A stretch of 64,000 nt of DNA, from assembly GCA_030867685.1 (NCBI GenBank), contig JAQOWU010000003.1, forward strand, positions 744,001-808,000, read 5' to 3'. Position numbers and translations under genes: made by a program. The notes under the pieces are model-generated. The model made no database searches and was not told the DNA's origin. It saw only the letters and a list, made by a program, of their open reading frames with translations. Every line of letters begins with the position of its first letter. The first letter of the stretch is position 1. Source of the DNA: Wickerhamiella versatilis. Lineage: Eukaryota. Below, piece after piece: positions 1,966 to 60,516 of this stretch.

Positions 1966-2010
1966 TACCACCTTCGCAGCGAAAAAAGATTATATAACCA
2001 AATTGTTCTC

Positions 2011-2406
2011 ATGAGCAAGGTAGTTAAATCGGCAGCCGAGTGGCGAACGCTCCTGACTCCCGCGCAATTTAAAGTACTTCGAGAGAAATCAACAGAGCGT
2101 GCATATACTGGCGAGTATGACAATTTCTTCAAGAAAGGGGTGTATAATTGCGCAGGATGTGGAAACCCATTGTATAGAAGTGACACAAAGTTCGACAGTG
2201 GCTGCGGATGGCCTGCATTCTTTAAAGCCATTCCGGGTGCCATAAACCTCCACCAGGATCGCGCATTTGGTATGTTGAGGACAGAAATGACCTGCGCTAA
2301 ATGTAGTGGACACCTTGGCCATGTATTCTACGATGAAGGGTTTAAAAACCCTACCAACGAGCGCCACTGTGTTAACTCCATAAGTCTAAAGTTTGAAGAC
2401 GAGTAA
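2011..2406 (+). CDS. MXR2: Peptide methionine-R-sulfoxide reductase MsrB
   Basis: Two Zn-binding CxxC pairs, KFDSGCGWPAF, HLGHVF and catalytic RHCVNS. Start placed at MSKVVK. Confidence 0.93.
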   Translation: MSKVVKSAAEWRTLLTPAQFKVLREKSTERAYTGEYDNFFKKGVYNCAGCGNPLYRSDTKFDSGCGWPAFFKAIPGAINLHQDRAFGMLRTEMTCAKCSGHLGHVFYDEGFKNPTNERHCVNSISLKFEDE

Positions 2407-2498
2407 TTCCAAAACTGCTCATTGTTCGTGAAAAAAAAACAATGCCCTTATCCCTACCACCATATGTTGCTCTGCTAACTTGACTCTCCAGAAAGCAA

Positions 2499-2597
2499 GG
2501 CAGTGTGGCCGAGTGGTTAAGGCGAGAGATTAGAATCTCCAGATAGCTTGCTATCTCTTGGGCTCTGCCCTCGCAGGTTCGAATCCTGCCGCTGTCG
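2499..2597 (+). tRNA. tRNA-Ser(AGA) with a 17-nt intron (2536-2552)
   Basis: Acceptor stem GGCAGTG/CGCTGTC plus G73; A-box TGGCCGAGTGG; anticodon stem AGAGA/TCTCT with AGA at 2532-2534; long variable arm GGGCTCTGCCC; B-box GGTTCGAATCC. Confidence 0.95.
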
Positions 2598-2605
2598 TCA
2601 TTATA

Positions 2606-2611
2606 TTTTTT
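2606..2611 (+). terminator. Pol III oligo-T terminator of the tRNA
   Basis: T6 run 8 nt after the discriminator base. Confidence 0.75.
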
Positions 2612-2767
2612 GCTCTCAGTATGAATTGACTTGTCATTGATGAGTTTTAACTTTTTTCTATGAGTTACATCCACATGACACTCATCCTGCTTTGCACATT
2701 TGATATATACGCAGCATAGCGTGGTGAGGTGGAAGTGGTGATGGTGGTTCCGTGACTAAGCGGATCC

Positions 2768-4318: not shown

Positions 4319-4376
4319 TGCATACAAACATATCTATACATACACATATTATCTCTAATTCTTAGCCGCAAGAAGC

Positions 4377-4946
4377 TTATCTTCGTTTTTTTTGTACCAC
4401 AGTAAAGCCGTCGTCGTCCACTATAGGTTCATTACGCGGCTCTTGCACCATCTTCTGGTCTGCCTCTCCGGCCTGATCCATCTCTTCACCTTCATCGTCG
4501 GAACCTTCCTCGTCGGAAGAAACCTCTGCAGTTCCAATGTTCTTAGCAGCACCAGTTTCTGCTCGTTTCTGAAGGCGCTGATAAAGTGATTCAATTACTT
4601 CATAAGACTGTTTTTCACAACTGTCCCAACTTGCAAGCACTGCCTCGGCGACTAGCGCTGCAGTTCCCGTCTCGATATCTGCATCGAATTCATCTTGCAT
4701 GATTCCCAATAAGCGGTATTCAACATCCTCCAAGGCTACTTCTGCGCTTGTAAAAAGATCCAAAATACTCCCGACGGTCCACTCACGCTTTTCAGCTGAC
4801 TCGGGTCCTCCCCAACCATTGTCCACCGCAATCGCGAGTTCGTCCCATAAAAATATCGCACAAGCAACCCCAAGCTCAAACCTTGCCTGTTGCTTGGGAT
4901 CTGCAAATTGAAGCGAAGGCGTTTTTCGGACAATCGCTGGTCCCAT
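4377..4946 (-). CDS. TSR2: Pre-rRNA processing factor / Rps26 escortin
   Basis: WGG domain (VDNGWGGPESAEKREW) and C-terminal VDDDGFTVVQKK. Confidence 0.92.
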   Translation of the reverse strand: MGPAIVRKTPSLQFADPKQQARFELGVACAIFLWDELAIAVDNGWGGPESAEKREWTVGSILDLFTSAEVALEDVEYRLLGIMQDEFDADIETGTAALVAEAVLASWDSCEKQSYEVIESLYQRLQKRAETGAAKNIGTAEVSSDEEGSDDEGEEMDQAGEADQKMVQEPRNEPIVDDDGFTVVQKKRR

Positions 4947-4984
4947 AAAAAGTAGAAATAATTCTGATTATCTAATGCTGCAAT

Positions 4985-6595
4985 ATGCGGAATCGCACGA
5001 TATACGTCACCCCAGATGGGGAGCGCCTGAGTACCCGCAAGCGCCTTGTTGATAGCGTGCCTTATCCAGCACATCATATTCCAACAGATGAAGAGGTCTT
5101 TGAAGCATCTGGTAAGCCACGCCTGGAATTTCTGCGAGACCACTTCTTCCACGAGGGTCGTCTCTCCGAAAAGCAAGTCCTACGTATAGTCGAGGGTGGC
5201 ACACGTGTTCTTGCTCAAGAGCCAAATGTCCTTCATATTGACGCACCCATTACAGTTTGTGGCGATATCCATGGCCAGTATTATGATCTTCTCAAATTGT
5301 TTGAAGTTGGTGGCAGCGCTTCAAATACACGGTATCTTTTCATGGGGGACTATGTTGATCGGGGATATTTCAGCATAGAGTGTCTGCTGTATTTGTGGGC
5401 ACACAAAATATGCTTCCCGAACTCCCTATGGCTATTACGTGGTAACCACGAGTGTCGCCACCTGACAAGCTATTTCACGTTTCGTGCCGAATGTGACCAC
5501 AAGTATTCTGACACTGTATATGATGCATGTATGACGGCTTTTGATGCGTTACCTTTGGCAGCTGTTATGAACAAGCAGTTTTTCTGTGTCCATGGTGGAT
5601 TGTCACCTTATCTCCATACCTTGGAAGATATTGAACGACTTGATCGCTTCAGAGAACCGCCAACTAAGGGTCTTTTGTGCGATTTGCTGTGGGCTGATCC
5701 CCATGAGGATTTCGGAGAAGAACCTGATCCCGAGGTTGAGTATTCGCATAACAATGTCCGAGGTTGTTCATATTTTTTCACCTTCAAGGCCGCATGTACT
5801 TTTCTACGACGTAATGAGTTACTCTCTGTCATTAGGGCACACGAGGCCCAAGATGCTGGGTATCGTACTTACCGTAAGAATGAAGCCACCGGATTTCCAG
5901 CTGTAATGACCATCTTCAGCGCACCGAATTATCTTGATGCTTATAACAATAAGGCAGCTGTTCTGAAATATGAAAAAAACATTCTGAACATTCGTCAATT
6001 CAACAGCTCACCACATCCTTACTGGCTTCCGAACTTTATGGATGTGTTCACGTGGTCCCTTCCATTCGTCGGCGAGAAAGTGAGTGAAATGCTCATGGGC
6101 ATTCTAAACACTTGCAGCCAGGAGGAACTGCAGGAAAATCCCCCTTCGGCAAGACAAAGCGAAAAGGTCATGGTTTCTGTGGTAGGAAAGAAGGCAGAGG
6201 AGACCGATCGCTCGACTTCCAGTCGTGCAAGACCACCGGAGGATGTCAAGGCTGAGCTACGCAATAAAATCATGGCCATCGGCAGGATATCACGCATGTT
6301 CAGCGTGCTGCGCGAGGAGTCTGAGCTTATTACAGAATTTAAGGGGCGTACCGGGGCTCGTCTACCCAAAGGATCACTTCTTCTGGGTACCGCGGGGCTG
6401 CGTGATCAAATATCGTCATTTGAAGAGGCTAGAAAGGCGGACATATCCAACGAGAGTATGCCGCCCACAGATAGTCCTACTGATTCTGCCCATCAGGGAT
6501 TAAAGAGACAGACTAGCTTCAAGAAGCCAGCTCCTGTCTCTACCGGCTCGTTCCAAAAACGCCTGGATGGTCTTTCTCGACGTTTGAGCCGCTAA
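4985..6595 (+). CDS. CNA1: Calcineurin A catalytic subunit (PP2B)
   Basis: GDIHGQ, GDYVDRG, RGNHE, SAPNYLD; CnB-binding FTWSLPF; calmodulin-binding [16 protein letters not shown]; autoinhibitory SFEEARKAD. Confidence 0.96.
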
Positions 6596-6733
6596 ATTAT
6601 TTATAGCTCGGCATATAGTCATGCCCATTACCTAGATTAAGCTAGGGTGTTCTTATTGTCATTTAATGGGAAGCCAAGCCACCAATCTGCAATCCAGAAC
6701 AGGCTATAGATCCAATTAAATCCCTTTATTACC

Positions 6734-7243
6734 TTATTCTCTCCGTCTTTTCCCCAATATTTGGTTTTGTTCAAACTTCACGCTGGCCGAGGCACTGGGA
6801 CCATCCAAGGTCTCTTCCCCGAGATCATCCGCATCGCCCGACTCAAGAGGACCTAGCGATGCATCGGCATCAAAGCCCTCGGTATTGTCCCCTTCATGAT
6901 AAGAGGCCCTCTCTGAACAAGCTGTCAAAGCCTGGTACAGATCCGACGCTTTGTGCGATCTTAGATGCAGTAATTCACCATTATTTACCTGCATCAGTAC
7001 TTCATTATGGGCACTACCAACAAAAGATAGTTCATTATAAGCGATTAACGACCCACTATTTGTATTTCTGGACCAGATGTATACACCATTAGAGGCTACC
7101 CAGCAACTTGTCTCATCATCAACATCCTCGGCCAGCCACAGCACAGGAGCCTCTTCGAGGGCAAATGACCTAGGTGTCGACGATTGATATTCAGATAATG
7201 GTACAAAATCTGTATGTTGAGGCTCTGAGTGGAGCGCGTGCAT
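6734..7243 (-). CDS. LOT5: Lot5/pICln-like (Voldacs domain) protein
   Basis: FVPLSEYQSSTPRSF motif, PH-like core, LYQALTACS, acidic tail. First ATG is at 7243. Confidence 0.7.
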   Translation of the reverse strand: MHALHSEPQHTDFVPLSEYQSSTPRSFALEEAPVLWLAEDVDDETSCWVASNGVYIWSRNTNSGSLIAYNELSFVGSAHNEVLMQVNNGELLHLRSHKASDLYQALTACSERASYHEGDNTEGFDADASLGPLESGDADDLGEETLDGPSASASVKFEQNQILGKRRRE

Positions 7244-7556
7244 ATGTTGCGCGCCTCCAACCACTCACTTCTTGACTAATGCTATTATGGTAAAACAATT
7301 GTCCTACTCATAACTATGCAACTCTATCAGATACAATTTAAACTGAATCGCAACATGTAATTGATTGACTGGTTGTTGTTTTTTTAAAACGATAAAATTC
7401 AAGTAATCACAGGCTGAAATCTCTTTGTTATGAATGCAAATTGAGCAGCACAGGAAATGGAGATCCGTCTCAGTGATCTAGCACTAAAATTCCACGATAC
7501 TCACAAAGACTACATAAGAATTAGATGGATAATAGCATTTTCTAGATTCTAAATGA

Positions 7557-8831
7557 TCACGACTTAAAATATTGTGCTCCCAGGCTCAACTTTGCCATCG
7601 CCTCGGTCAAGACATTACGGACATTTTCCGCAGACGTATCGACCAGTTTTGTGGCAGTTTCGGCGAGACCTTCATCGCTCAGAGTCTCCACCAGGCGGTC
7701 AACGTCAGTAAGCATAAGTGGATCTTCCTTTCCAGTACCCAAAAATTCGGAGGCACCGAGCGAATTACGGATGGCGCGCTTGTTCTTCTTCTTGGCTGAT
7801 TTCGCAGCCTCCTTAGCCTTCTTAGCAGATTCCTTCGACTTCTTTGAATCTTCGGCTTCTTGCTTGGCTTTAGCTTCAGCCTCAGCCTTCTCTTTGGCTT
7901 CCCGTTCAGCCTGTTCACGGGAGCCCGATTCACGTTCCCATTTGCGCTGCGCCTTAGCCTTCTTTTCGGCCTCCTTAAACAGCTTTATCCGAGGGTCTTC
8001 ATTCAAAGCAGTGTCAACAAGCTTGTGGATGCGGCCATTATCGTCCTTCTTCCGCTTGTTTCGTGCAGCTTTGTTCTTCTTCTCGATATACCGCTTGTTG
8101 TCACGATTTGACGAGTCGTCTGGAACATCCTCATCCAGCCACTCAAAACTTCGCCAGGAATCGAAGTTGTACCAGAAGTTGTAGAATGCATCCACCTCTG
8201 GCTTGGGCGTATCAATTGTGCCCAACTCGGGTACTGGTTTTTTGGTCGAGAACCTTCCCTCGGCTTCAAATACAGGAGCCCAACGAGCGAAAAACTCCTT
8301 ATCCTTCTTAGAAACAGGAACTTCTGCTGCGCTGTCGATTGAGTCGAACTGTCGGCGTTTCGCAGGATCTGTCAAAGTCTCAAACGCCTTCTGGATCAAC
8401 TTGAAGAAACCATCCTCATCACCAGCGCCCTCAGCAGCCTTTTTATCAGGATGATGCCTCAGTACCTGTCGGCGATGAGCGCGACGAATGTTATCGTCGG
8501 TGGCACGCCAGCGCAGCTTGCCAAGGCCAAGCACGGCATATTGATCTGCGCTCTTCCAGTCTTTTGGATCATGCTTCAGCAAATAAGGATCCACATGGTC
8601 ATCAAAAAACGCATCATCGCCTGAACCATCCTCAGTTTGTTTGACATTTCGCTCAGCTTCAATTTTTTCATCTTCGCTGAACGTACGGCCTCGCAGGGTC
8701 CGTCTTGCGTGTGCGAGAAAGCCAGGTCCAATAGGCTCTATGCTGCGTTTAGCAGTTTCACTTAGCTCTCCGGCCGCAGCTGGTTGCCAATTCTCGGGCA
8801 ACGCAGGAAGCTTTATGGAGGTAGCAGTCAT
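7557..8831 (-). CDS. ZUO1: Zuotin, ribosome-associated J-protein
   Basis: IEPIGPGFLAHARR, J-domain HHPDK, FYNFWYNFDSWRSFE, charged RAC head. Confidence 0.96.
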   Translation of the reverse strand: MTATSIKLPALPENWQPAAAGELSETAKRSIEPIGPGFLAHARRTLRGRTFSEDEKIEAERNVKQTEDGSGDDAFFDDHVDPYLLKHDPKDWKSADQYAVLGLGKLRWRATDDNIRRAHRRQVLRHHPDKKAAEGAGDEDGFFKLIQKAFETLTDPAKRRQFDSIDSAAEVPVSKKDKEFFARWAPVFEAEGRFSTKKPVPELGTIDTPKPEVDAFYNFWYNFDSWRSFEWLDEDVPDDSSNRDNKRYIEKKNKAARNKRKKDDNGRIHKLVDTALNEDPRIKLFKEAEKKAKAQRKWERESGSREQAEREAKEKAEAEAKAKQEAEDSKKSKESAKKAKEAAKSAKKKNKRAIRNSLGASEFLGTGKEDPLMLTDVDRLVETLSDEGLAETATKLVDTSAENVRNVLTEAMAKLSLGAQYFKS

Positions 8832-8866
8832 GGAATATTTTTACAAAAGTCTAGATGATGTAATCT

Positions 8867-9457
8867 ATGGATGTAGCATTGAATACAGGAAGCCTTTGCG
8901 TGGTAACCTCTTATCCTGAGGTTAATGCGGAATGGTGTGTGTCTGAACTTTTAAATGATGGAGTAATTGTGGGGTTTTCAAGAAAGCCCTCAGTATCTCC
9001 ACCAAGAAAATGCTTAGATCTGTCGGACAAGATCTTCTCACCTAGATTTGCACTTCCTGATATTGTTACGGAGACAACAGATGCAAGTGCTGTCGGGTTG
9101 ATTTATCCAGATATTCTGGTGCAGTCTGACCGCTTTACAGCAGATGATCTTTTAGATGTTGTTAATACCCTTCTTGGCCGAGGGCAAACAGTAGTTATTG
9201 TTTGCAACATATCCACTGCACTTCTCAACGAGAATTACCCGATTGGTAGGGAACAAAACCGGCTTGTCACAGCTCTCTTGCATAAGTGCCATACAACTGT
9301 GAGTGTGCGTCCGTTTAAGACTGGCAGGGCTGATGACACCACTGGTGTTGTTATAATTGGGCCCGGTCCTCGTGCTAATAAGAGAGAAATACTTGATTAT
9401 GTTTATACCGTGAAAACTAACGGTAAGGTCGCAGTTGTCCCGCGGGCATCTACATAG
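8867..9457 (+). CDS. ELP6: Elongator subunit 6-like (divergent, short)
   Basis: C-terminal VRPFKTGRADDTTGVV matches the Elp6 L.TG.A.D..G motif. Confidence 0.65.
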   Translation: MDVALNTGSLCVVTSYPEVNAEWCVSELLNDGVIVGFSRKPSVSPPRKCLDLSDKIFSPRFALPDIVTETTDASAVGLIYPDILVQSDRFTADDLLDVVNTLLGRGQTVVIVCNISTALLNENYPIGREQNRLVTALLHKCHTTVSVRPFKTGRADDTTGVVIIGPGPRANKREILDYVYTVKTNGKVAVVPRAST

Positions 9458-9495
9458 AGGGAAACAGAATTAATTACGTAATTTTTATTTGCACC

Positions 9496-10869: not shown

Positions 10870-10892
10870 GAAATTATGTATGTCTATAAGCA

Positions 10893-11837: not shown

Positions 11838-12018
11838 GAATTTCCAGAACAGGGTTCAAAAGACAATCCATCAAAAAAACGTTACCTCGAACCAGATCAA
11901 TATAATAACTCTTTGTCGTCAATGAAAACATGTCGGTTCCTGAGATTTTAATGTATCATAAAATCACGGTAAGCCAGATGTGGTTCTAAAGTGGTTCCAT
12001 GACTCAGCGTACCACACA

Positions 12019-12993
12019 ATGCCTTATTGTTCTGAAGTCCTGACCTACCAAACCACCGGATCGAACATTAAGCTAAGAAAAAGATCGATAAAAACACCAC
12101 TTGACCCCTATTTTATAGTAGTGCGCGTAGCATGTGTGTCTCTCAGCGGCGACGATGCAGTACGTAAAGCACTAACATGGGTTCCATGGTTTGGAGGACA
12201 TGCTGTAGGCCAAGAATTTTCTGGGATTGTTGAAATTGCCGGAGCGTTTTCTAATTTTGCCACGGGTGATCGTGTTTGCGGCTACGTGGACTCATGGGAT
12301 GGCTCATTTGTAGGCACTTATGCGCTGATAAACGTAAAAAAGAATTTTGTATCGAAAATTCCGGACAGTCTGTCTGACGTGGAGGCAGCATCAATTCCTC
12401 GAGCATTCATGCGAGCAGCATCTATTCTCAGGAAACTTAAGCCGAATCGCTATAGCCGTGTACTGGTTATCGGAGCTATGTCACCATTAGGATTGATGGT
12501 CATACAATTGGCTAAGCTAGAATACGGGGTTGCATTTATCGCTGCCATTGGGGAGGAATGTGGGTGGCTTCGTCAGATAGGTGCCGATGTCGTTTGTTCG
12601 CAAGAGGATGTAGGGGTGTGCTGCCCGAGCGGATTCACGGCAGTGATAGACACATGCAGTAGTGGAATTAGATCAGAAATTCCCGTTGGCAACTACTACA
12701 CTGCAATGGCTACCGGAAGCTATACATCTCGTATCCAATTGCCATATAAATTAATCCGCTGGCTCTATTCAGAGGTTACCGAACACAGCACCGAGGGCAC
12801 TGAGGATCCCGAAGGTACTGAAGGGTCTATAAGCTCTGAAGGATCGGCATCCAGATTAAAATCGTTTTTTGATCATCATTCTGCGGCACAATGCCCCTTG
12901 GATCATGTTTACGGAGTCGAAGAGGTCAATCAGGCTTGGGGCCGAATGATTGATGGGGCCAAGAATAAGGTAGTCATTCGCCTCACTTCATGA
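12019..12993 (+). CDS. MDR-superfamily oxidoreductase-like protein (Yim1/Ast1-like)
   Basis: GroES-like GQEFSGIV...GDRVCG, degenerate Rossmann motif VLVIGAMSPLG, C-terminal KNKVVI. First ATG is at 12019. Confidence 0.65.
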   Translation: MPYCSEVLTYQTTGSNIKLRKRSIKTPLDPYFIVVRVACVSLSGDDAVRKALTWVPWFGGHAVGQEFSGIVEIAGAFSNFATGDRVCGYVDSWDGSFVGTYALINVKKNFVSKIPDSLSDVEAASIPRAFMRAASILRKLKPNRYSRVLVIGAMSPLGLMVIQLAKLEYGVAFIAAIGEECGWLRQIGADVVCSQEDVGVCCPSGFTAVIDTCSSGIRSEIPVGNYYTAMATGSYTSRIQLPYKLIRWLYSEVTEHSTEGTEDPEGTEGSISSEGSASRLKSFFDHHSAAQCPLDHVYGVEEVNQAWGRMIDGAKNKVVIRLTS

Positions 12994-13032
12994 AAACAAC
13001 CACTTTAGGAGCGGCTAAATTCATTCGTATAC

Positions 13033-20629: not shown

Positions 20630-22336
20630 TTATGAATGCTTATGAGCCCGAGGATCACGACCACGACGACGATCAGAACGTTTTAAGCTCTGTTCAATCA
20701 ATGCATCATCTTCAGCCGCATCGAAGACAGCAAATGGTTGCTCAATTTCTTCTTTATAGCTGTCATTCAATGACTTCGGTCCTGCCTTCGGCGATGGTCC
20801 TGTCTTACGGAATTTAGCGACAAAAAACCCATCCACGTTGTACGTATGTGGATAGTAACGCCGAGCATGTTTTAGTGAAGGATGAAATTGCTTTCCGCGG
20901 AAGCTAGTAAAAGCCTCCTTACCAATTTGCAGCCCAGCATCAACAAGTTCAACATTAGGCCGCTTTTTCAAGGCATAGTCAACCACAGCCTCATCTTCCT
21001 CTACCATGACCGAACAAGTTGAGTATACTATTGTTGCACCTGGTTTGGTATGGTCCACTGAGTCAATTGCACAGAGAAGAAGCTGCTTCTGCAATTGTGG
21101 AAGTTGAATGAAGTCTTTTTCTGTGCGATTCTGTTTCACTGCCGGGTCTTTCGAGATTACACCAGTTCCGGAGCATGGTGCATCTAGGAGGACCCTGTCA
21201 AATCCACCTATAACACGGGGAAATTCTCTAGCATCATAATTGCAAACCACTGTATTTGTACAACCCAGTCGATGGATGTTCGCAATCAAACTCTTGGCTC
21301 GCTGCTTAGACGGATCATTGGCAAAAAGAGACCCAGTGTCTTTCATGAGGGCAGATATATACGTAGACTTTCCACCAGGTGCTGCTGCCATGTCAAGAAT
21401 ACGCTCATCTTCCTGTGGGTCTAGAGCCATCACTGGGAGGAAACTAGATGCCGCCTGTAGAATGTAATGCCCAGCCAGGTATTCAGGCGTAGCACCTATG
21501 GGGACCTGAGATTCGAAGACTTGCAAACCGACTTTTGTCCAAGATCCTATAGGCTGAAGGTTTACTCCACGGTTTACAAGTGCTTGCACCAAGTCTCTCC
21601 TTCGTGTTCGTAAGGTATTAGTTCGTATCGTCACAGGTCTAGGGACTTCATTGGCCTCAAAAAAGTCAATTGCCTCAGCTGGACTGAAAAGCTCCAGCAA
21701 CTTAGCAGCAAGGTATTCAGAGTAGCCATAATACTCTGATATGTCCTCCAGAAGCCTTTGTGTATAGAAACTACGAGGCTTGCCTTTACCGAGGGACTTA
21801 TAATCATCCAAAATTTGAATTGTCTCCATTATGCGGACCCTCAAACCTGCAACAGTCGGTTTGCCCTCTGCGAGACTTGCATCAGCATCAGCACCATCTT
21901 CAGAAGATTCGACAGATGAGTCTTCGGTTCCTGACTGTTCAGGAACTTCATCACTATCCATTGGAGAAGAATCGACTTCGGAAAATTCATCCAGTTCCTC
22001 CTCTTCACTGGAGGAATCACTCTGAGAATCAGACTCTTCTAGGAAGTTAGCAGCAGTATTCTCATTTATTTCATCCAAATTGGCCTGAGAATCATCCTCG
22101 TCGTCACTGAATATCGGACGTGCACCTTGTTCTTCTTCTTCGATATCAGAATCATCAAATAGGTTAGCTTTTTCCTCCTCCAGGTCCTCTTGTGGTTCAG
22201 CACTCTGCTCAGCCTTTCTCGCCCGCTTTCTCCCTCTTCTACTAAGTTTTTGTGAGTCGCCAGCTGGACGTTTTTCACCCCTGAATTCTTCAAGAGTTGG
22301 GGGATCGGGCTGTTTATGCTTCGTACGTCGCCCCAT
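20630..22336 (-). CDS. NOP2: 25S rRNA m5C methyltransferase
   Basis: LDMAAAPGGK, DAPCSGTG, YSTCS, PHTYNVDGFF. First ATG is at 22336 (MGRR). Confidence 0.96.
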   Translation of the reverse strand: MGRRTKHKQPDPPTLEEFRGEKRPAGDSQKLSRRGRKRARKAEQSAEPQEDLEEEKANLFDDSDIEEEEQGARPIFSDDEDDSQANLDEINENTAANFLEESDSQSDSSSEEEELDEFSEVDSSPMDSDEVPEQSGTEDSSVESSEDGADADASLAEGKPTVAGLRVRIMETIQILDDYKSLGKGKPRSFYTQRLLEDISEYYGYSEYLAAKLLELFSPAEAIDFFEANEVPRPVTIRTNTLRTRRRDLVQALVNRGVNLQPIGSWTKVGLQVFESQVPIGATPEYLAGHYILQAASSFLPVMALDPQEDERILDMAAAPGGKSTYISALMKDTGSLFANDPSKQRAKSLIANIHRLGCTNTVVCNYDAREFPRVIGGFDRVLLDAPCSGTGVISKDPAVKQNRTEKDFIQLPQLQKQLLLCAIDSVDHTKPGATIVYSTCSVMVEEDEAVVDYALKKRPNVELVDAGLQIGKEAFTSFRGKQFHPSLKHARRYYPHTYNVDGFFVAKFRKTGPSPKAGPKSLNDSYKEEIEQPFAVFDAAEDDALIEQSLKRSDRRRGRDPRAHKHS

Positions 22337-22353
22337 TTTTTTGTTAAAAAATG

Positions 22354-22361
22354 TTACGTCA
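22354..22361. promoter_or_regulatory. CRE/bZIP-like site TTACGTCA centred in the 41-bp NOP2/GCD10 divergent spacer
   Basis: 17 bp from the NOP2 ATG and 16 bp from the GCD10 ATG; one instance of a recurrent motif (see findings). Confidence 0.55.
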
Positions 22362-22377
22362 GCAGACAACCTGATCT

Positions 22378-23652
22378 ATGAGAATTGAAGAGGGTTCATA
22401 CGTTCTCCTCCGACTTCCATCAGGAAATACTAAGGTTGTAAAGCTTGAAAAGGATCAAATTGTGAATCTTGGAAAGTTCGGTACATTTAGTGCAGAGCAT
22501 ATTATAGGTGACCCTTTTGGATTCACTTACGAGGTTTTACCAGACAAAAGCGTAACTAAAGTAGAGCAGCCGGAATACGTCGAACATGATGATCTTCTTG
22601 GAACTGAACAGTCCATGGAGGGTGATAGGATTGATTCAACGGGACTCCAGGCCCTGACAACAGAAGAAATAGAGAGTTTGAAGAAACAGGGCCTTTCAGG
22701 TGAAGAGATCATTGCGAAAGTGCAGAAGGGTCATGCTGCATTTGAGCACAAAACTGAATATTCCAAAGAAAAATATATGAAGCGTAAGAAGAGAAAGTTC
22801 CTTCAACAGTTTACTCCCGAAGCTTTTGGTCCTCATGAACTTGTGGAATATTATATAGAAAAAGATCACTCAAAAGTTTTGAATATGAGCCCCGAAACGC
22901 TTTCCTTGCTATTAAATTCTGCGAATATTTTCGCGGGTGGGAATTACCTAGTTCTGGATGAGACGCCAGGTGTGATTGTCGGTGCCATTCTCAGTCGAAT
23001 AGGTGAAGAGGGATCCGTGACTGTGCTTCATGAAAACGAACATCCCAACCTTGATGCTCTGCGATTTTTGGGGCTTGATAAGAGCCCATTAGTGAGGACA
23101 CTCTCGTTACTAGACTTTTTGCATCCAGATGAGGCACCAAAATTCGAAGAGAAATCAAGCGAGGAACTCTCACCACTCAAGCCCGTTCAAAGAGGCCAGT
23201 ATTTCCGAAATATGAAACGCGAGAATGATAGAAAGTGGATCATCGAGAAAGCACGCAGCGAGGAAGGATTTGATGCCTTGGTCGTGGCTTCCACACTAGA
23301 CCTTCAAACCTTGATACCAAGCCTGTTACCTGCACTTGGAGGCTCGTGCCCGCTGGCTATTTACAGCGAATATAAAGAGCCGTTAGTATCTCTGACTCTC
23401 ATGCTAAAAAAGGATCTTCGAGTGCTTGGTCCCACAACTACAGAGACGAGAGTGCGAAAGTATCAAACATTGCCTGGCAGAATACATCCTGAGATGTCTA
23501 TGCGGGGGTATGGTGGTTACATTTTGAGTGCACTGCGCGTATTTCCCGATTCAGCAGTTTCTGCTAAGGGTGCTGTACACTCCAGACCCCGTAAGAGAAT
23601 TGCTACAGGATTGGAGACTCGAAGAGATGAGAGCATGAATGAGATTGAGTAA
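22378..23652 (+). CDS. GCD10: tRNA m1A58 methyltransferase non-catalytic subunit (Trm6)
   Basis: LGKFGTF, KTEYSKEKY, YQTLPGRIHPEMSMRGYGGY. Confidence 0.93.
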   Translation: MRIEEGSYVLLRLPSGNTKVVKLEKDQIVNLGKFGTFSAEHIIGDPFGFTYEVLPDKSVTKVEQPEYVEHDDLLGTEQSMEGDRIDSTGLQALTTEEIESLKKQGLSGEEIIAKVQKGHAAFEHKTEYSKEKYMKRKKRKFLQQFTPEAFGPHELVEYYIEKDHSKVLNMSPETLSLLLNSANIFAGGNYLVLDETPGVIVGAILSRIGEEGSVTVLHENEHPNLDALRFLGLDKSPLVRTLSLLDFLHPDEAPKFEEKSSEELSPLKPVQRGQYFRNMKRENDRKWIIEKARSEEGFDALVVASTLDLQTLIPSLLPALGGSCPLAIYSEYKEPLVSLTLMLKKDLRVLGPTTTETRVRKYQTLPGRIHPEMSMRGYGGYILSALRVFPDSAVSAKGAVHSRPRKRIATGLETRRDESMNEIE

Positions 23653-30546: not shown

Positions 30547-30859
30547 GCAGTACTCCTGATATCCTAGTTGGAGAAAGATAATATCTCTTTATCAAGAGAT
30601 ACTAATATTTCAGAAGCAGAGAATTTCAGAGAAAAAAGTAATAGAGCTGTTTCTTCTTAAAGTAACGAGGTGATGTCGAGGCTAACTTAGTCTATTGTGA
30701 ACTCTTTCAATTGATTAGTTTTTGGAAAAGATAAATGCATGTAATATATATGGGCTTCAGAGGGCCTTGAAAGCTCAGTGTGCCATGCGGAGTTTATTTC
30801 GGGCAATAATTATAGAACAAAAAAAGGTAAGACAGACTTGTAATCTTTGACCACGATAT

Positions 30860-31717
30860 TTAAATTCCAAGCGTAATACGGCACCCATAACAATATATAT
30901 TACCAGGATCGCTACGACAAAGAGAGCATGGCTCGGGCTCTTGCGAGACCTTTTGTGCCACCTTCGAAACTGTCGAGACAACAGCAGGAAATTCCTGTTG
31001 GGTTTTTGTGAAGTACGCATGGACAATCTCATCAATGCTTTGAAGTTTTGTAACCTGAGGCACCTTGGGCAATTCTTCTGTAGAGCTCAGTCCTCGTATA
31101 TTGGCATACATTAACAATTCGGGCTGCGTGATTTCACGAAGCGGAAATTTAACCAAGTTCTCAGCACTTATTAGCGAAGGGATCTGCTGACCTCGTCCTT
31201 TTATAGTCTCTGAGAGAACAAACTGGCTCATACTCGTTGTGGAAAGGCTATAAAGAAGTGCCGATGCATGACGGGTGGTAGCAAACTTAATCAATGATTG
31301 TCTCAAAAGCTGCATATCAAGATCTTGCTCAGATGACCTAGTATGATTCTTAGGCCTTTCAATCTTAGGGCATAAGGTATCAATCGCTTCGGATTTCGGG
31401 ATCCACTCTATATCAAGATTGAATGGCCACTCTCGGGGTTCGCCAATGTGCACGCATAGAACACGAATTGACCGATGACTGTTGAGTTTTTCCCTTTGAA
31501 ATTGTAAAAGACGCTGAACAAGATCTACAAGTACCATGCTCGAGATACCAAATGAAATAGGCACTACTATAAGAGGAGGAGGATGTCCACGTAGGGGTTC
31601 CATCGCACGATAAAACTTTTGCCCTATGAAATCAACAAAACATGAATCACAAAATTTTTCACCACGTGCTTTTAGCGAGCTTTCACGCTGGCGACATCTC
31701 GAACACAAACTTTCCAT
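30860..31717 (-). CDS. NCS2: Cytoplasmic tRNA 2-thiolation protein 2 (Ctu2)
   Basis: N-terminal CxxC pairs, degenerate PP-loop ISFGISS, ETIKGRG, FPAVVSTV, C-terminal CYGC. Confidence 0.85.
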   Translation of the reverse strand: MESLCSRCRQRESSLKARGEKFCDSCFVDFIGQKFYRAMEPLRGHPPPLIVVPISFGISSMVLVDLVQRLLQFQREKLNSHRSIRVLCVHIGEPREWPFNLDIEWIPKSEAIDTLCPKIERPKNHTRSSEQDLDMQLLRQSLIKFATTRHASALLYSLSTTSMSQFVLSETIKGRGQQIPSLISAENLVKFPLREITQPELLMYANIRGLSSTEELPKVPQVTKLQSIDEIVHAYFTKTQQEFPAVVSTVSKVAQKVSQEPEPCSLCRSDPGNIYCYGCRITLGI

Positions 31718-31781
31718 GAAACTTTCGCAGCTGAGCTAAGCAGTAAGTCTCGCGGGGACACTGCACTCACCAGACAGACGT

Positions 31782-32039
31782 ATGGCTATCGAAAGAGATC
31801 CTTCCAAGGTCGACTTTACAAAGGATGGGAATATCAAACTGTACCCAGATGACCCTACATCTGAGGATAGTTTGCGAACTTTGCGAACGAAAGACGCCTC
31901 ACAATTTTTCGATCCATGTGCCGAAGCTGCAAAAATGAGTATGAACTGCCTCGAGCGCAACAATTACGAGAAAAAGCAATGCAAGCCTTATTTCGAGGCC
32001 TATCGTGACTGTACACGCGCATGGAAACAAAAACGTTGA
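31782..32039 (+). CDS. COX23: Twin Cx9C cytochrome oxidase assembly factor
   Basis: YPDDP...SQFFDPC-x9-C...C-x9-C. Confidence 0.9.
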   Translation: MAIERDPSKVDFTKDGNIKLYPDDPTSEDSLRTLRTKDASQFFDPCAEAAKMSMNCLERNNYEKKQCKPYFEAYRDCTRAWKQKR

Positions 32040-32332
32040 GGAGTTGCTTGAGACAATAGCAGTCCAGGCCCTAGACCAAGGCCTCGGCTCGAAGGAGGTA
32101 TAGGGAAGTCATTGTCATTCATAGTGATTTGAATAGATGACTCTCGATCAGCAGAAGCATTGAAAAGGTGGCGCACAAAGTCTGCATCATGACGAGCGCG
32201 CAATGATTGTTCATTAAAACGGCGTATTGCCGGCAGCGCTCGTTCTGTCTGTATTCTTGTTATTTCTGCAAGGTCTCGGTTAATATCTCGTAGAACCTGG
32301 ATGATTTCATTATCCAGCTGCCATTCCTCCAT
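32000..32332 (-). CDS. ASK1: DASH/Dam1 complex subunit Ask1 (minimal)
   Basis: LDNEIIQVLRDIN...LPAIRRF...FVRHLFNASA resembles the Ask1 domain (LDQEITL.LQ.ID...FW..FFE.SA). Confidence 0.7.
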   Translation of the reverse strand: MEEWQLDNEIIQVLRDINRDLAEITRIQTERALPAIRRFNEQSLRARHDADFVRHLFNASADRESSIQITMNDNDFPIPPSSRGLGLGPGLLLSQATPQRFCFHARVQSR

Positions 32333-37028: not shown

Positions 37029-37065
37029 TCTACCCTTACCCATAACATTTAGCTCGGGTTCGACA

Positions 37066-42539: not shown

Positions 42540-43181
42540 TTAGCGTAGCTTCTCCGACTGACCCTGTGGTGTAAACTCGGCCTTTTGTATCCACTGGCAT
42601 ATTCGCCATGTGGTTTGCAAGTCCGGGCCCTTAATCCAGATTCGACCATTGACCCCAATTGCCACCTCGTACGGATATTTTTTTCCAATGGCATCAAGGA
42701 CCGGGTGGCCCTCAGAAATAAGATGACGTGCGAAGCCCAGTCCTACCTCGATGAGCATACCGTCCTGAAGTTGTCCGAACCCAGCAGCTTTTCCAGTGGT
42801 TGCATCAAAACACTCGAGCTCTGGGTCGAGCGCTGGATCTGCAGATGCCACACGAGCATACACTACGTCGCCCTGTACCAATTTAGGCTTGTTCTTGCGG
42901 GTTGCATTTTCGAATGCAAGCTCACCTAGGCGAACAGATCGGCTAAATGGTTGTAATGACACTCTATGATCCGTCATTATTCTCCCCTGAATCACACCAA
43001 TGACTAGATCACCGCGGGATGGTATATATCGTTTTGTGTTCGAATCCACAAAACCTACGCCGCGTGAGGTAGAAATATAGCCTGCATTTTGCGCCCTGGG
43101 CCGATCATGCCAAACGTCTATCCCAGGACCTGCCTTTAGACTCGAAAGGTCCACCAAATCGCCCGGTACGACGACTGGCAT
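42540..43181 (-). CDS. RRP40: Exosome cap subunit Rrp40
   Basis: KRYIP, FENATRKNKPKL, AIGVNGRIW. Confidence 0.93.
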   Translation of the reverse strand: MPVVVPGDLVDLSSLKAGPGIDVWHDRPRAQNAGYISTSRGVGFVDSNTKRYIPSRGDLVIGVIQGRIMTDHRVSLQPFSRSVRLGELAFENATRKNKPKLVQGDVVYARVASADPALDPELECFDATTGKAAGFGQLQDGMLIEVGLGFARHLISEGHPVLDAIGKKYPYEVAIGVNGRIWIKGPDLQTTWRICQWIQKAEFTPQGQSEKLR

Positions 43182-43225
43182 ACAGTTCTAATATTGAAGA
43201 ATATTACGTAACCAGAAATCCTGGT

Positions 43226-43618
43226 ATGGGTGCATGCCTGTCGTGCCTGTATCCAAGGAGAGACAAGTCTTTGACGACAGAGACGCAGCCATTGTTGGAT
43301 GATAGTTCAGTAGCGCAAGATCAGGACAGTGCTGATGCCAATACCAGAAATCAAAAGGATCTGAGTAGAATTGTTCAGTGCACACATGATCATTTCATAG
43401 ATATTACGACTTTGGGACAGCCAGAATTCGAGCACCAAGATGGCGGCGTGTCAGAGACACTGCTCCAGAGTATCAGAAATGTTGATCCCTCGAAAGTATG
43501 GAGCTGGCCCAAGTTGCGACCATTGACGGAGGAGGAGTCTGAAGTCCTAAATCACTACATACCTGAGACCGTTGAAAGAACTTCAGTTAAGCTTTCGTAC
43601 GTTGGCAAGTGGTATTAG
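43226..43618 (+). CDS. MEH1: Ego1/Meh1/LAMTOR1-like vacuolar anchor of the EGO complex
   Basis: MGACLSC (myristoyl plus palmitoyl sites), dileucine ETQPLL, LSRIV..T....IDI. Confidence 0.65.
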   Translation: MGACLSCLYPRRDKSLTTETQPLLDDSSVAQDQDSADANTRNQKDLSRIVQCTHDHFIDITTLGQPEFEHQDGGVSETLLQSIRNVDPSKVWSWPKLRPLTEEESEVLNHYIPETVERTSVKLSYVGKWY

Positions 43619-43965
43619 GCTATAATTAACGTTAGTGTTAGAAAGTAATGTGACATTGGGTTGAGTCTTAATAGGAAGGTTTTTTTCTTGACCAACAAAA
43701 GTTTTAGATATAATATCAATGGCTATCGAATTGCCTTTGTTTTGAGCTAGAAGAAGGTGGCTAGCTTCCAGAGAAAAGTCTAAAAGTCTTCTTAAGGAGC
43801 CGACCAGCAACGTCTATAAAACAGGCTCTTTACCATGTTATGGCATAGGTTCAGATAGTACGAAAAATAAACCTAAAAGAGGCTGTAACTGTTTTTTTTT
43901 GATTTTACCTATTTCTCTGTCACGAAAAACCTCGGAAGATTCAGACAAAAATTTGAGTCAGCACA

Positions 43966-49786: not shown

Positions 49787-50122
49787 CCCCCTGCTTACGC
49801 AACGATGCGCTTCGCGTCAAGAATAAAATGAAAGTGCGGCCTAAGACATGCCTAAATACTAAGTTAAAAATGATTGTTTTAATTCTTGTAAATAACCATC
49901 TGCAACCAGTCGAAGTCTAAGGATAATCCTTTTCTTACACAGGAGTTTCTTTCACTTTCGCACCAACAAAGCGCGAAGTGAGTTCATATTTTTTGAAAAA
50001 AAATCAAATTAAAAAAGAAAAATAATAAATTAGTGCAACTCATATCACTTGGCACGAATTCCAGTCATGCCATACTCTCACGAGAGTAGTCTGTATTACT
50101 CAGCGACAGCGAATTTTCAAGG

Positions 50123-56338: not shown

Positions 56339-56524
56339 GACGCGTGGCTGACTGAGTAAGTCCTGACTAACTTAGATTTCGGGTTGTCGCCTATAATCTC
56401 TATTATAGAAAAAAGAGAATTTTAAGACCAGCAGAACACAAAACCTCTGTAGTATCTATATTTTAGATTTTTCTTATCGATTGATATATTGGCATGCTTG
56501 ATGTTCTGCTCGAAAACATCCTTC

Positions 56525-57385: not shown

Positions 57386-57599
57386 GATAACTATTCAGGA
57401 GAGAGCAATATTACAAATAAGCTATCTACACTAGAAATCAGAGTTACCATAGTTAGCTTCGCAGTGAGATTGGAAGTCGGCTAAAGAAAAATAACTAGAC
57501 CTTTGCTGGCTGATTTACACTTATCATATTTAAGTGGACGAGAATATGAAGTACCATGGTGAATATGCAGAACGAGTTATAGTTAAGACTTCTGTAAGC

Positions 57600-58151
57600 A
57601 TGATCACGTTTGTGACGGGAAACGCAAACAAACTTAAAGAAGTTCAAGCACTTCTGGGCACAGATGTGACAAATAAAAATGTTGATTTGGAGGAAGTTCA
57701 GGGCTCATATGAGCATATAATATGTCATAAAGCCCTTGCAGCAGCAGAAGACATCAAAGGTCCCGTGATGGTTGAGGACACTGCCCTCGAATTCGGTGCT
57801 TTCGGAGAGGAACTTCCAGGACCCTACATAAAATGGTTCTTGAAACAGCTGCACCCTGAAGGCTTGGTGAAATTGTTAGCAGGATTTGAAAACAAGTCTG
57901 CAACGGCCGTCTGCACTGTGGGCTATTGCGAGGGGCCTGGTGCACCTGTGAGAATATTCCAGGGCCGAACACAAGGATCAGCCGTAACACCACGGGGTCC
58001 CCAAACGTTCGGCTGGGATTGTATATTTGAGCCAGAGGGCTATAACCAGACGTATGCGGAGATGCCCAAGGATGAGAAAAATAAAATAAGTCATAGGGGA
58101 AAGGCCATGAAAGAATTTAGGGAATTTCTCCATGGAAACTCTGATAGTTAG
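57600..58151 (+). CDS. HAM1: Inosine triphosphate pyrophosphatase
   Basis: [34 protein letters not shown]. An upstream in-frame ATG exists at 57546. Confidence 0.93.
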
Positions 58152-58246
58152 AGTATATTAAAATGTTAAGAGAATTACAGATTGCTTCTTGAAAACCGGA
58201 CATAATAAATAAGTTATGTATGGATAATAAAGTTGAGCTTCCTGTA

Positions 58247-58936
58247 CTATGTCAAAATGGGTAGTTCAGGAAGCTTTTTATAGCCGCAACGAGCAATCCA
58301 GGCTCTTCTTACTGTTGCATACGCTTGGTGAGTACGACCTTTGAAATGTTGAGCCAGGTGCTCATCAGTATCAGCGGCACCTAGTAATGCACCGCAAATC
58401 AAACAAGACTGTAATTTTTGCGGAGACGAGAAGTCAAGTTTATCGTGAAGATGCTTGATTTTACGTATTAAGTGATGCTTTTTTGTTGTCAGTTCGCTAA
58501 GAAGACTGAGATCGCGTAAAGCTTCGCTCATCAAGCCTGACGTTCCAAATAAATATATTTCGTGTTCCACGAGTAAAATTTGATCCTCAAGCTTCTTCTT
58601 CTTCTGATATGCTTCAATCAATTCCCGTTCCGAATTAGGTTCTATGGTAGCCGCTAACTTTTCCTCGTTATTAGCCAAGTTCTCCTTAAGACGCCCAATG
58701 ACTATTTCAAGTTGATGTAGAAAATAGTTTTCGTACTCTGGTAGTGGTCCTCTTTCTTCATATAGCATCCGGGCCCGTTCAATATGTTTTCGTGAGCAAT
58801 GGCCCAATTGTGGAAGAAGGGAGTAAACACAAAACTCCACGCAATACGCGGGACATATTTCTTTGCTTTGAAGATCTAACTCCTCATTATTAGAGCCCAT
58901 AAGCTGTTCCAGCTGCTGACGCTGTACTGAACTCAT
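58247..58936 (-). CDS. LUC7: U1 snRNP subunit Luc7 (divergent)
   Basis: QR..LEQLMG start, C3H zinc finger, coiled coil, QKLQSCLICGA...HFKGRTH zinc finger. Confidence 0.8.
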   Translation of the reverse strand: MSSVQRQQLEQLMGSNNEELDLQSKEICPAYCVEFCVYSLLPQLGHCSRKHIERARMLYEERGPLPEYENYFLHQLEIVIGRLKENLANNEEKLAATIEPNSERELIEAYQKKKKLEDQILLVEHEIYLFGTSGLMSEALRDLSLLSELTTKKHHLIRKIKHLHDKLDFSSPQKLQSCLICGALLGAADTDEHLAQHFKGRTHQAYATVRRAWIARCGYKKLPELPILT

Positions 58937-58978
58937 AGTGCAAGTCGCTGTGATGATTAGATAAACGGACAGTTTGGC

Positions 58979-59830
58979 ATGAAGTACCTGTGTTACCTTG
59001 GTATGGCTGCGGCCTGGACCATCTCCAAGGGTGGTGCTGCTATAGCTGGCGGTGATATTGGCGACCGAGTTTCTTTCTCTAGTATTCGTGAAGCTGGTGC
59101 ATTAGAACTTGGCCCGAAACGTAGTCTGGATGTTGGATTTCAAGTAGTTGAAGCACCACCTGCTCCTCAACAGGCTATGGTGAAAGTTGGCGACCAGCTA
59201 TTCAATGCTAAATTTCGCGGCAAGAATGCTAAAGTGGTAGTCCCTCATTCTTCGCTTTCTGGTGGTGATGGAACATTTCCTGTGGAGGTGATCGTTGGAT
59301 CGTCAGACGGCAAGCCTTTACGTGAATTTGCGTTTGAGGTGAAAGTTGTTGGTAGTAGTAAATCAGTTAGTGCGAGCCGACCTCTACAAATACTACCAGA
59401 GATATACCACCAGTTCAAAACTAAACCTCGTACCGTGAATCCCTTAGTCGCATTACTATTCTGTGGTATTATTGATCTCGGATTTGCTGCTTTGTTTTAT
59501 TCCTGGAATTCTGAGGTTGGTTTTAAGGTGCCACCAGCATCTGTGATTCCCTTTTTGGTATGCGTCACGCTCGTGGAATCTGTGTTTGTTGGTTATTTTA
59601 TAAACTGGAGCGTATTCAGAACATTGGGCGTTCTTGGATTTATATTGCCCTTTTTGCTTGTGACTGGACATGCAGCCTTACTATCTTTGAAGCCTACAGA
59701 GGTAGAAGCACCACCTATCAAAAGCTTGGCTGAAAAGTCTCATGAGATTCCAAAGAAAAATCAAGAAAGTTCTAAGTCACACAGTGATACTCCCACTTCT
59801 ACGCCAAAGCATAAAAGTTCTAAACGCTAG
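58979..59830 (+). CDS. SWP1: Oligosaccharyltransferase delta subunit (ribophorin II)
   Basis: Signal peptide, PQQAM, LPEIYHQFK..P, three C-terminal transmembrane helices. Confidence 0.8.
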   Translation: MKYLCYLGMAAAWTISKGGAAIAGGDIGDRVSFSSIREAGALELGPKRSLDVGFQVVEAPPAPQQAMVKVGDQLFNAKFRGKNAKVVVPHSSLSGGDGTFPVEVIVGSSDGKPLREFAFEVKVVGSSKSVSASRPLQILPEIYHQFKTKPRTVNPLVALLFCGIIDLGFAALFYSWNSEVGFKVPPASVIPFLVCVTLVESVFVGYFINWSVFRTLGVLGFILPFLLVTGHAALLSLKPTEVEAPPIKSLAEKSHEIPKKNQESSKSHSDTPTSTPKHKSSKR

Positions 59831-59982
59831 GTATTTCGTTTCTCTTAAAAAATAAGTTTACATTTTTTTCTCCAGTAAATCTTTAACACGTTTGAACGCT
59901 GAATCTACAAACTTGGAAGAATATTACAGTTCGCATGCACCATGTGATGTATAAAATGAAGGAGCTTGACCTGGCAAATACA

Positions 59983-60456
59983 TTACGCCTCATCTTCAAA
60001 TCCTCTTTCCAACCATCGCAGATTAAATCCTGAGCTAACCGCGAATACTCGGCCACGTATAAGCCCCATAGGCAGAGGTCCGTAGGATCTAGAATCAATA
60101 CTCTGAGACATATTATCCCCTGTGACCCAAACATGGCCCTCTGGTACTCTTACAATAGAGTTCGCATCCTTTAGTGGGTCAATGCAAAGGTAGTCACCTG
60201 GCATACCACATATTCGCTTGCAGACACGTTGGACAGGGTTGGTGGGCTTTGACGCAATTATAATGTCCCCAACATCACAACCACGACCAAATTTAGCCAG
60301 CTTTGATGTGTGAACATAATCGCCAGAATAGTTCAATGTAGGGAGCATGCTTTCACCATATGTCTCACAAAGTTCATATACATCATTTCTCATTACATGT
60401 ACTGCACACCCTATGCGAAGAGCACATGAGAATGTACGCCCTACAGCAGAGAGCAT
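59983..60456 (-). CDS. IMP1: Mitochondrial inner membrane peptidase subunit 1
   Basis: Catalytic GESMLPT and KRI, VPEGHVWVTGDN, DSRSYG.LPMGLI. Confidence 0.9.
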   Translation of the reverse strand: MLSAVGRTFSCALRIGCAVHVMRNDVYELCETYGESMLPTLNYSGDYVHTSKLAKFGRGCDVGDIIIASKPTNPVQRVCKRICGMPGDYLCIDPLKDANSIVRVPEGHVWVTGDNMSQSIDSRSYGPLPMGLIRGRVFAVSSGFNLRWLERGFEDEA

Positions 60457-60516
60457 GGCATCAATACCCTACCAACGTCGTCAACGTACCTTAGTAATCA
60501 CAGGAAAAGTTCGGCA

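Follow-up and report, generated by a model that had tools for sequence, protein, structure and literature searches.

The DNA considered here is a 64,000-nucleotide stretch from Wickerhamiella versatilis (assembly GCA_030867685.1, contig JAQOWU010000003.1, positions 744,001 to 808,000 of the forward strand), referred to below as the window and numbered from its first letter. Its subject is a set of very short spacers between the start codons of divergently transcribed genes, together with the short dyads that lie in them and in front of other genes. The window holds 48 long open reading frames (ORFs), with a coding fraction of 84.7%, a GC content of about 45% and one gene per 1.33 kb, and the Pfam assignments made across it describe ordinary budding-yeast housekeeping functions. 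The best named relative of its NOP2 protein comes from Wickerhamiella sorbophila (63% identity) and that of its MsrB protein from Starmerella bacillaris (75% identity), which places the host, judged by best protein relatives, within the Wickerhamiella/Starmerella clade; Sugiyamaella and Trichomonascus appear among the more distant protein matches. The mean gap between genes is about 210 bp, while bioRxiv 10.1101/399394, in its available text, gives genome-wide averages of 370, 549 and 455 bp for three species of this clade. The smallest tandem gap measures 38 bp and the smallest convergent gap 23 bp, and in one convergent pair the genes overlap by 40 bp. Fifteen gene pairs are divergent. Eight of these are head-to-head pairs whose short common upstream segment spans 35-64 bp from ATG to ATG, the other seven are separated by 160-780 bp, and no divergent gap lies between these two ranges. 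Ultra-short spacers account for about half of the window's divergent pairs.

The eight spacers measure 45, 38, 35, 41, 64, 44, 42 and 60 bp, exactly as claimed in the first-pass annotation, according to both the listing of ORFs from their first ATG and the reading of the sequence itself (Table 1). The one between NCS2 and COX23 has the lowest AT content (45%). The gene names proposed at the same time agree with Pfam for 15 of the 16 genes; the ELP6-like ORF has a sub-threshold Pfam match only (E=0.28), together with an ESM-Atlas lead (0.90, 179 shared features). It had also been foreseen that the case would collapse if the true start codons lay further downstream, and this is not what was found, as most starts are backed by N-terminal homology. 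Residue 2 of ZUO1 aligns with residue 4 of solved zuotin, residue 10 of TSR2 with residue 23 of yeast Tsr2, residue 10 of CNA1 with residue 20 of fungal calcineurin A, residue 6 of RRP40 with residue 7 of yeast Rrp40, residue 5 of NHP2 with residue 15 of yeast Nhp2 and residue 13 of MAK5 with residue 6 of its best representative. The first 20 residues of NOP2 are kept in 10 of 10 aligned orthologues, and GCD10 starts where its 82%-identical relative starts, immediately ahead of the first conserved block. The Pfam profiles tell the same for LUC7 (residue 5 at profile position 3), IMP1 (13 at 9) and MEH1 (26 at 23). ELP6 and MEH1 have no second in-frame methionine, and starting at the next one would cost NCS2 and COX23 their N-terminal Cys motifs or CHCH domain. 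The sole near alternative noted to change a spacer is Met9 of SWP1, with which the distance would become 66 bp. Searches of PDB with the N-termini returned nothing usable for the N-terminus of NOP2, for ELP6 or for MEH1, and the PDB alignments of LUC7 and SWP1 stop short of the N-terminus. For MXR2 (MsrB), the reading frame remains open as far upstream as an ATG at 1957, and a start there would create a 9-nt head-to-head overlap with MAK5; this start was rejected, because 9 of 10 aligned relatives start at or within 2 residues of the methionine at 2011 or have a non-conserved extension. Protein comparison shows the predicted start codons of the eight pairs to be correct.

Every spacer contains one match, and no more, to the loose pattern TKA-N1-2-TMA, at the coordinate given in the first-pass annotation, where it had been described as a central palindrome common to all eight. 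Nominally this is striking, since dinucleotide shuffles lead to an expectation of 1.4 spacers with the motif among the eight (per-spacer probabilities of 0.07-0.30, with a product of 3.5e-7). However, the motif was chosen after looking. When all motifs of the same shape were enumerated (two triplets, each with no more than one two-fold degenerate position, separated by g to g+1 nt, on either strand), 46 of 300 shuffled spacer sets contained some motif that covers all eight, and the count of eight in eight is therefore not significant by itself. Five of the sites (TTATATAA, TTATCTAA, TGATGTAA, TGAGCTAA and TTAGATAA) fit the loosened pattern only and are without independent support. The other three (TTACGTCA at 22354, TTACGTAA at 43204 and TTAGTAA at 60491) are canonical dyads of the bZIP (Yap/AP-1/ATF) type. 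As the loose pattern does not survive the correction for motif choice, only three of its eight sites are canonical and the element is found equally in genes with long upstream regions, a palindrome special to bidirectional spacers is not supported.

The broader distribution of the motif was assessed in the 31 genes outside the eight pairs, whose upstream regions are mostly 90-780 bp long and which form an independent test set. In 14 of these 31 genes the loose motif lies within the last 38 nt before the ATG, whereas 2000 dinucleotide shuffles average 3.2 such genes and never exceed 11, and its near-to-far density ratio is 3.1 (p=0.0011). It is likewise present in all four short tandem spacers that bear a promoter (at most 110 bp; p about 0.017). 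The signal is sharper for the canonical heptamer TKASTMA. Of its copies, 13 fall within 45 nt upstream of an ATG (1757 bp in total), 4 in distal promoter DNA (5349 bp), none in convergent spacers (2733 bp) and 11 in coding sequence (54143 bp). The near and distal densities differ about 10-fold (p=1.1e-5), so that the placement of TKASTMA in promoter DNA is non-random, and it is independent of orientation. An unbiased k-mer comparison put TGACTAA/TTAGTCA at the top of all 7-mers (6 near, 1 far, 0 coding). The octamer with an ACGT core, TKACGTMA, occurs four times in the window, three of them in ultra-short promoter spacers. Altogether, 18 of 47 genes are preceded by a canonical dyad (TKASTMA or TKACGTMA), which lies 5-34 nt from the ATG; for several of them (HID1-like, E2, PRPP synthetase, beta-COP and the aconitase family) Pfam fixes the N-terminus. 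The three canonical dyads of the spacers sit 14-34 nt from both starts; for TTACGTCA the distances to the ATGs of NOP2 and GCD10 are 17 and 16 nt. The real element is a start-codon-proximal bZIP-type dyad, common throughout the window and not specific to bidirectional spacers, and the so-called central palindrome is partly an artefact of its loose definition and partly a glimpse of this more general element.

Table 1. Ultra-short divergent spacers and start-proximal dyads (window coordinates; + and - give the strand)
Feature	Position	Genes or context	Remarks
45-bp spacer	1966-2010	MAK5-like DEAD-box (19-1965, -) / MsrB = MXR2 (2011-2406, +)	loose match TTATATAA at 1990-1997, non-canonical, contains TATATA
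38-bp spacer	4947-4984	TSR2 (4377-4946, -) / calcineurin A CNA1 (4985-6595, +)	loose match TTATCTAA at 4968-4975
35-bp spacer	8832-8866	ZUO1 (7557-8831, -) / ELP6-like (8867-9457, +)	loose match TGATGTAA at 8856-8863
41-bp spacer	22337-22377	NOP2 (20630-22336, -) / GCD10-TRM6 (22378-23652, +)	canonical ACGT-core dyad TTACGTCA at 22354-22361
64-bp spacer	31718-31781	NCS2/CTU2-like (30860-31717, -) / COX23-like CHCH (31782-32039, +)	loose match TGAGCTAA at 31732-31739
44-bp spacer	43182-43225	RRP40 (42540-43181, -) / MEH1-LAMTOR1-like (43226-43618, +)	perfect palindrome TTACGTAA at 43204-43211
42-bp spacer	58937-58978	LUC7 (58247-58936, -) / SWP1-like (58979-59830, +)	loose match TTAGATAA at 58957-58964
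60-bp spacer	60457-60516	IMP1 (59983-60456, -) / NHP2 (60517-60957, +)	canonical heptamer TTAGTAA at 60491-60497
Dyad TGACTAA	2753-2759	8 nt upstream of HID1-like ATG (2768)	start fixed: Pfam Hid1 position 1 at residue 1
Dyad TGACTAA (TTAGTCA in gene orientation)	7273-7279	29 nt upstream of ATG 7243 (-)	
Dyad TTACGTAA	9474-9481	38-bp tandem spacer 9458-9495 (+), ELP6-like stop to CBF/Mak21-family ATG	14 nt before ATG; outside the first-pass list
Dyad TGACTCA	12000-12006	12 nt upstream of ATG 12019	
Dyad TTAGTAA	27165-27171	15 nt upstream of E2 (UQ_con) ATG 27187	UQ_con from residue 4
Dyad TGAGTAA	27955-27961	14 nt upstream of proteasomal AAA-ATPase ATG 27976	
Dyad TGACTAA	29608-29614	20 nt upstream of C2H2 zinc-finger gene ATG 29635	
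Dyad TGACTAA	35026-35032	22 nt upstream of TPR gene ATG 35055	upstream region 780 bp
Dyad TGAGTCA	43954-43960	5 nt upstream of PRPP-synthetase ATG 43966	Pribosyltran_N from residue 7
Dyad TTACTCA	50096-50102	20 nt upstream of eIF3c ATG 50123	
Dyads TGAGTAA and TGACTAA	56353-56359 and 56364-56370	14 and 25 nt upstream of beta-COP ATG 56338 (-)	
Dyad TGACTAA (TTAGTCA in gene orientation)	63058-63064	5 nt upstream of aconitase-family ATG 63052 (-)	

Further sequence features accompany the dyads. The HID1-like gene and the gene starting at 12019 have a common extended start-proximal sequence around the dyad, GTGGTTCC-N-TGACT-N-AGCG (within 2738-2767 and 11986-12018, respectively). The word GTGGTTC/GAACCAC is enriched near ATGs (4 near, 0 far), and TCAGC is often found 3' of the dyad, which extends the half-site to a Maf-like TGCTGA (5 near, 2 far). 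Miniature upstream reading frames are also present in the spacers: TGATGTAA forms part of an ATG-ATG-TAA mini-ORF (8855-8866 region) that ends 3 nt ahead of the ELP6-like ATG, a 7-codon frame in the GCD10 spacer (22351-22377 region) ends 3 nt before the GCD10 ATG, and a frame ATG-ATT-AGA-TAA (58953-58964) ends 14 nt upstream of the SWP1-like ATG. A reading of TTACTAA/TGACTAA as branch-point or 5'-intron sequence was rejected by eye, as the expected C does not follow and the starts are fixed by N-terminal homology.

At the level of transcription, the geometric argument made in the first-pass annotation is sound, as two initiation complexes and two ordinary 5' untranslated regions (UTRs) cannot fit side by side between ATGs that lie 35-64 bp apart. 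With the starts backed at these distances, the genes of a pair would therefore be without separate, side-by-side promoters. The spacers would be products of extreme genome compaction in a yeast of the Wickerhamiella/Starmerella clade. Each mRNA would most likely start within the spacer or at its far edge, the two 5' UTRs, tens of nt long as in other genes, would lie superposed on opposite strands, and the DNA of each initiation complex would include some tens of bases at the 5' end of the neighbouring coding sequence. In the related lineage Yarrowia, TATA elements precede start sites by about 30 bp, according to the available text of PMC7849388, and at this distance such elements would fall in the neighbour's coding sequence in every pair. 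As regards leader length, the 31 genes outside the pairs show an approximately 2.4-fold depletion of upstream ATGs over some 60 nt ahead of the start (15 in 1838 positions vs 87 in 4497). The depletion persists when only out-of-frame ATGs are counted (9 in 1776 vs 59 in 4497, p=0.0026), a count that is free of start-calling bias, and the reverse word CAT is not depleted over the same 60 nt. The organism would therefore have scanned leaders of tens of nt and would not be generally leaderless. The density of sense-strand ATGs is likewise low in the spacers (6 in 738 strand-nt). Overlapping 5' UTRs of normal length are, on these grounds, weakly favoured over leaderless mRNAs.

As for the dyads, the genes outside the eight pairs carry loose-motif sites in balanced orientations (six TGA..TAA and five TTA..TCA by hand tally). 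Their dyad symmetry and equal orientations favour recognition by a dimeric DNA-binding protein over an RNA signal or a directional initiator. In the proposed mechanism, a dimeric factor would bind the dyads, which would act as start-proximal promoter elements, and in a short divergent spacer one dyad would be near both starts. The further generalization, in which the bZIP-type dyad (TKASTMA/TKACGTMA) would be a bidirectional promoter element of the whole lineage, placed about 5-34 bp upstream of the start codon in roughly 40% of genes, is put forward tentatively and is at present an unlikely bet.

Taken as a whole, the explanation preferred here, in which compaction created the spacers, the 5' UTRs of paired genes overlap and the motif is two mixed things, is given an even chance of being correct. 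That the short spacers are annotation artefacts, with the true starts downstream or first exons elsewhere and ordinary intergenic distances, is very improbable. Near alternative methionines do exist in SWP1 (residue 9), LUC7 (13) and IMP1 (22), N-terminal homologue alignments do not cover NCS2, COX23, ELP6 and SWP1, and the Kozak context of the short-spacer genes is poor. However, for 12 of the 16 genes the alignment with homologues or Pfam profiles begins between residues 2 and 26, the next in-frame methionine lies at least 39 residues on (39-373) or is absent in 13 of them, and close relatives use the same starts for GCD10, NOP2 and MsrB. MEH1, moreover, begins with Met-Gly-Ala-Cys, which we take to be the usual lipidation motif of its family. 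A more serious competitor has both genes start back to back inside the spacer and diverge from its centre with 5' UTRs of about 0-25 nt, two initiation complexes firing alternately on the same DNA and the central site marking or helping to set the start points, as in microsporidia. This arrangement appears rather unlikely, but it draws on several of the observations that weigh against the overlapping-leader explanation. All counts and statistics come from one 64-kb window, and the preference for overlapping leaders is derived from sequence alone. Within the first 60 coding nt of the neighbour, no depletion of antisense ATGs is seen (13 in 912 vs 28 in 1767), in a small sample of 16 genes in which coding constraint may mask an effect, and initiation deep inside the neighbour is therefore not supported. 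The coding 5' ends next to the short spacers are not AT-richer and contain no TATA-like words, so that an embedded core promoter is not visible in them; TATAWAWR is absent within 200 nt upstream of all 16 short-spacer genes, and TATATA is found only in the first spacer. The position of the dyads is also unusual for a yeast activator, since, with leaders of tens of nt, sites of the bZIP type at 5-34 nt from the ATG would coincide with the transcription start site or lie downstream of it. Six upstream ATGs are located within the spacers, at -10 for CNA1 (out of frame), -5 for IMP1, -9 and -12 for ELP6, -27 for GCD10 and -26 for SWP1. Transcription from the far edge would place them in the leaders, and shorter leaders are therefore favoured for those genes; initiation downstream of the ATGs at -5 to -27 in these five spacers would avoid them. 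An A at -3 is seen in 3 of 16 short-spacer genes vs 14 of 31 others, which hints at a different initiation context but is a trend only and not significant at these numbers. Near-leaderless transcription is further favoured by the dyads placed 12-17 nt from the ATG in 11 of 33 gene-motif relations with a gap of at most 45 nt (hand tally), and by the precedent of Encephalitozoon cuniculi, with 5' UTRs below 7 nt and a start-proximal motif (PMC2803860, available text). Against it stands the depletion of upstream ATGs in the 31 other genes, which spans about 60 nt and suggests that leaders of tens of nt are normal here. In addition, a complex assembled some 30 bp upstream of the start point, at the distance given for Yarrowia in the available text of PMC7849388, would still cover some of the neighbour's coding sequence.

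The other doubt concerns the motif, which might be a chance product or by-product, namely a loose AT-rich dyad made of stop-codon triplets (TGA/TAA, TTA/TCA) and fitted post hoc to eight short AT-rich sequences. For the motif common to the eight spacers this remains somewhat improbable, although it deserves more credit than the back-to-back arrangement. The shuffled sets that yield an equally general motif speak for it, as does the fact that one half of the motif is the in-frame stop bounding the ORF in 10 of 29 gene-motif relations, with the motif overlapping that stop in 2 more. Five of the eight sites are non-canonical, and non-canonical octamers are not clearly enriched near ATGs elsewhere (9 near and 10 far, with 5 of the 9 near ones being those of the first-pass annotation). 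The loose motif also remains at expectation in long divergent regions (12 vs 11.3) and long tandem regions (21 vs 16.8). However, in genes that were not used to define the motif, the canonical subset is strongly tied to its position, and the excess persists when the bounding stop is held fixed (4.04 expected, 14 observed). The stop-rich heptamers with a W centre, TKAWTMA, are absent near ATGs and occur seven times far from them. On these two grounds, the surviving excess and the missing W-centre heptamers, a stop-codon by-product was rejected as the main cause. The seven short convergent spacers, similar in AT content, contain no loose motif where 4.3 are expected (p=0.009); in long convergent spacers there are 6 against 11 expected from shuffles.

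Compacted eukaryotic genomes in which short intergenic DNA goes together with overlapping or leaderless transcripts are known. Among them, the microsporidian Encephalitozoon cuniculi resembles the window in having near one gene per kb, spacers too short for separate promoters and a motif close to the start codon (PMC2803860, available text). The motif itself differs, as the signals described in that text are CCC/GGG or AAATTT and here there is a bZIP-type dyad, which takes up a start-proximal place of the microsporidian type in the 18 of 47 genes mentioned above. Leader length is less clear-cut: compared with the leaders of less than 7 nt given in the same text, the depletion of upstream ATGs over about 60 nt argues against a general reduction of leaders, whereas in five spacers the ATGs at -5 to -27 point to short leaders. 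The host here is, in addition, a budding yeast of free-living type with mitochondrial genes and not a parasite. In humans, promoters count as bidirectional when their start sites are no more than 1 kb apart, and GABP sites reportedly serve as their shared factor site. The likeness lies in a single intergenic segment common to two divergent genes, in which one site could serve both directions. In contrast, here the start codons themselves are 35-64 bp apart, and the class of site is equally common in the unidirectional promoters of the window.

In Saccharomyces cerevisiae, sites of the Yap/Gcn4/ATF type mark stress regulons and are located well upstream of genes. Here, by contrast, the genes concerned are housekeeping genes unrelated in function, with the sites 5-34 nt from their ATGs, and five of the eight spacer sites misfit the class. 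The words themselves coincide with published fungal elements, since in the available text of PMC6545440 TGACTAA, TTAGTCA and TTACTAA (TTAGTAA) are Yap1 sites and TTACGTAA is a Yap4/Yap6 site; the dyad symmetry and the lack of orientation bias seen here fit a dimer. Adjacent pairing of ribosome-biogenesis genes is also known in yeasts, as a matter of adjacency and co-regulation and not of spacers of tens of bp (PMC3500266, available text). In agreement with such pairing, every pair described here contains at least one gene related to RNA processing or ribosomes (MAK5, TSR2, ZUO1, NOP2/GCD10, NCS2, RRP40, LUC7, NHP2), and the adjacency of NOP2 and GCD10 is kept in Trichomonascus ciferrii, Zygosaccharomyces rouxii and Huiozyma naganishii, as judged by neighbouring locus tags. 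However, most of the partners are not ribosome-biogenesis genes, and NOP2 and GCD10 are not named in the main text of PMC3500266. A literature search, with most subscription journals outside it, returned nothing on such spacers in the Wickerhamiella/Starmerella clade, no budding yeast with about half of its divergent pairs 35-64 bp apart from ATG to ATG and no case of bZIP-type dyads clustered at about 35 nt or less from start codons; the main text of the S. batistae genome paper contains nothing on UTR, intergenic, gene density, overlap or bidirectional.

Divergent ATGs separated by 35-45 bp constitute natural minimal bidirectional promoters and set a lower bound on the non-coding DNA needed by RNA polymerase II. 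The spacers force either overlapping head-to-head transcripts or very short leaders upon a yeast that otherwise looks normal for scanning translation. If the dyads act as proposed, one dyad and 35-45 bp could suffice as a minimal bidirectional promoter complete in itself, the remaining initiation machinery being placed on coding sequence; such a core-promoter architecture is not known to have been described for budding yeasts. Were start-proximal bZIP dyads general in the lineage, they would amount to a lineage-specific rewiring of core-promoter architecture, and a very compact bidirectional promoter part would be available for engineering Starmerella/Wickerhamiella production strains. If the pattern fails genome-wide, the finding shrinks to extreme but ordinary genome compaction.

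Tight packing is also seen outside the divergent pairs. A stop and the following ATG are only 38 bp apart at 9458-9495, and convergent stops lie 23 bp (10870-10892) and 58 bp (4319-4376) from each other; with gaps as short as these, terminators and 3' UTRs must also overlap neighbouring genes. The COX23-like ORF (31782-32039, +) and a DASH Ask1 ORF (32000-32332, -) meet tail to tail with a coding overlap of 40 bp (32000-32039). On the other side of the same spacer, the NCS2/CTU2-like ORF has only 285 aa and at its end matches the CTU2 profile (110 positions) over positions 1-50 only. It is overlapped in another frame by a second ORF (30775-31032), both within 30775-31717 (-), and a 313 bp 'spacer' then follows, so that the locus could represent a frameshift, a short intron or a truncated gene. 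Finally, a 99-nt tRNA is recognized by Rfam at 2499-2597 (+, 46.5 bits) inside the 361-bp gap between MsrB and the HID1-like gene. It is not reported by ARAGORN and is therefore probably intron-bearing, and its presence turns this 'tandem' gap into two shorter ones.

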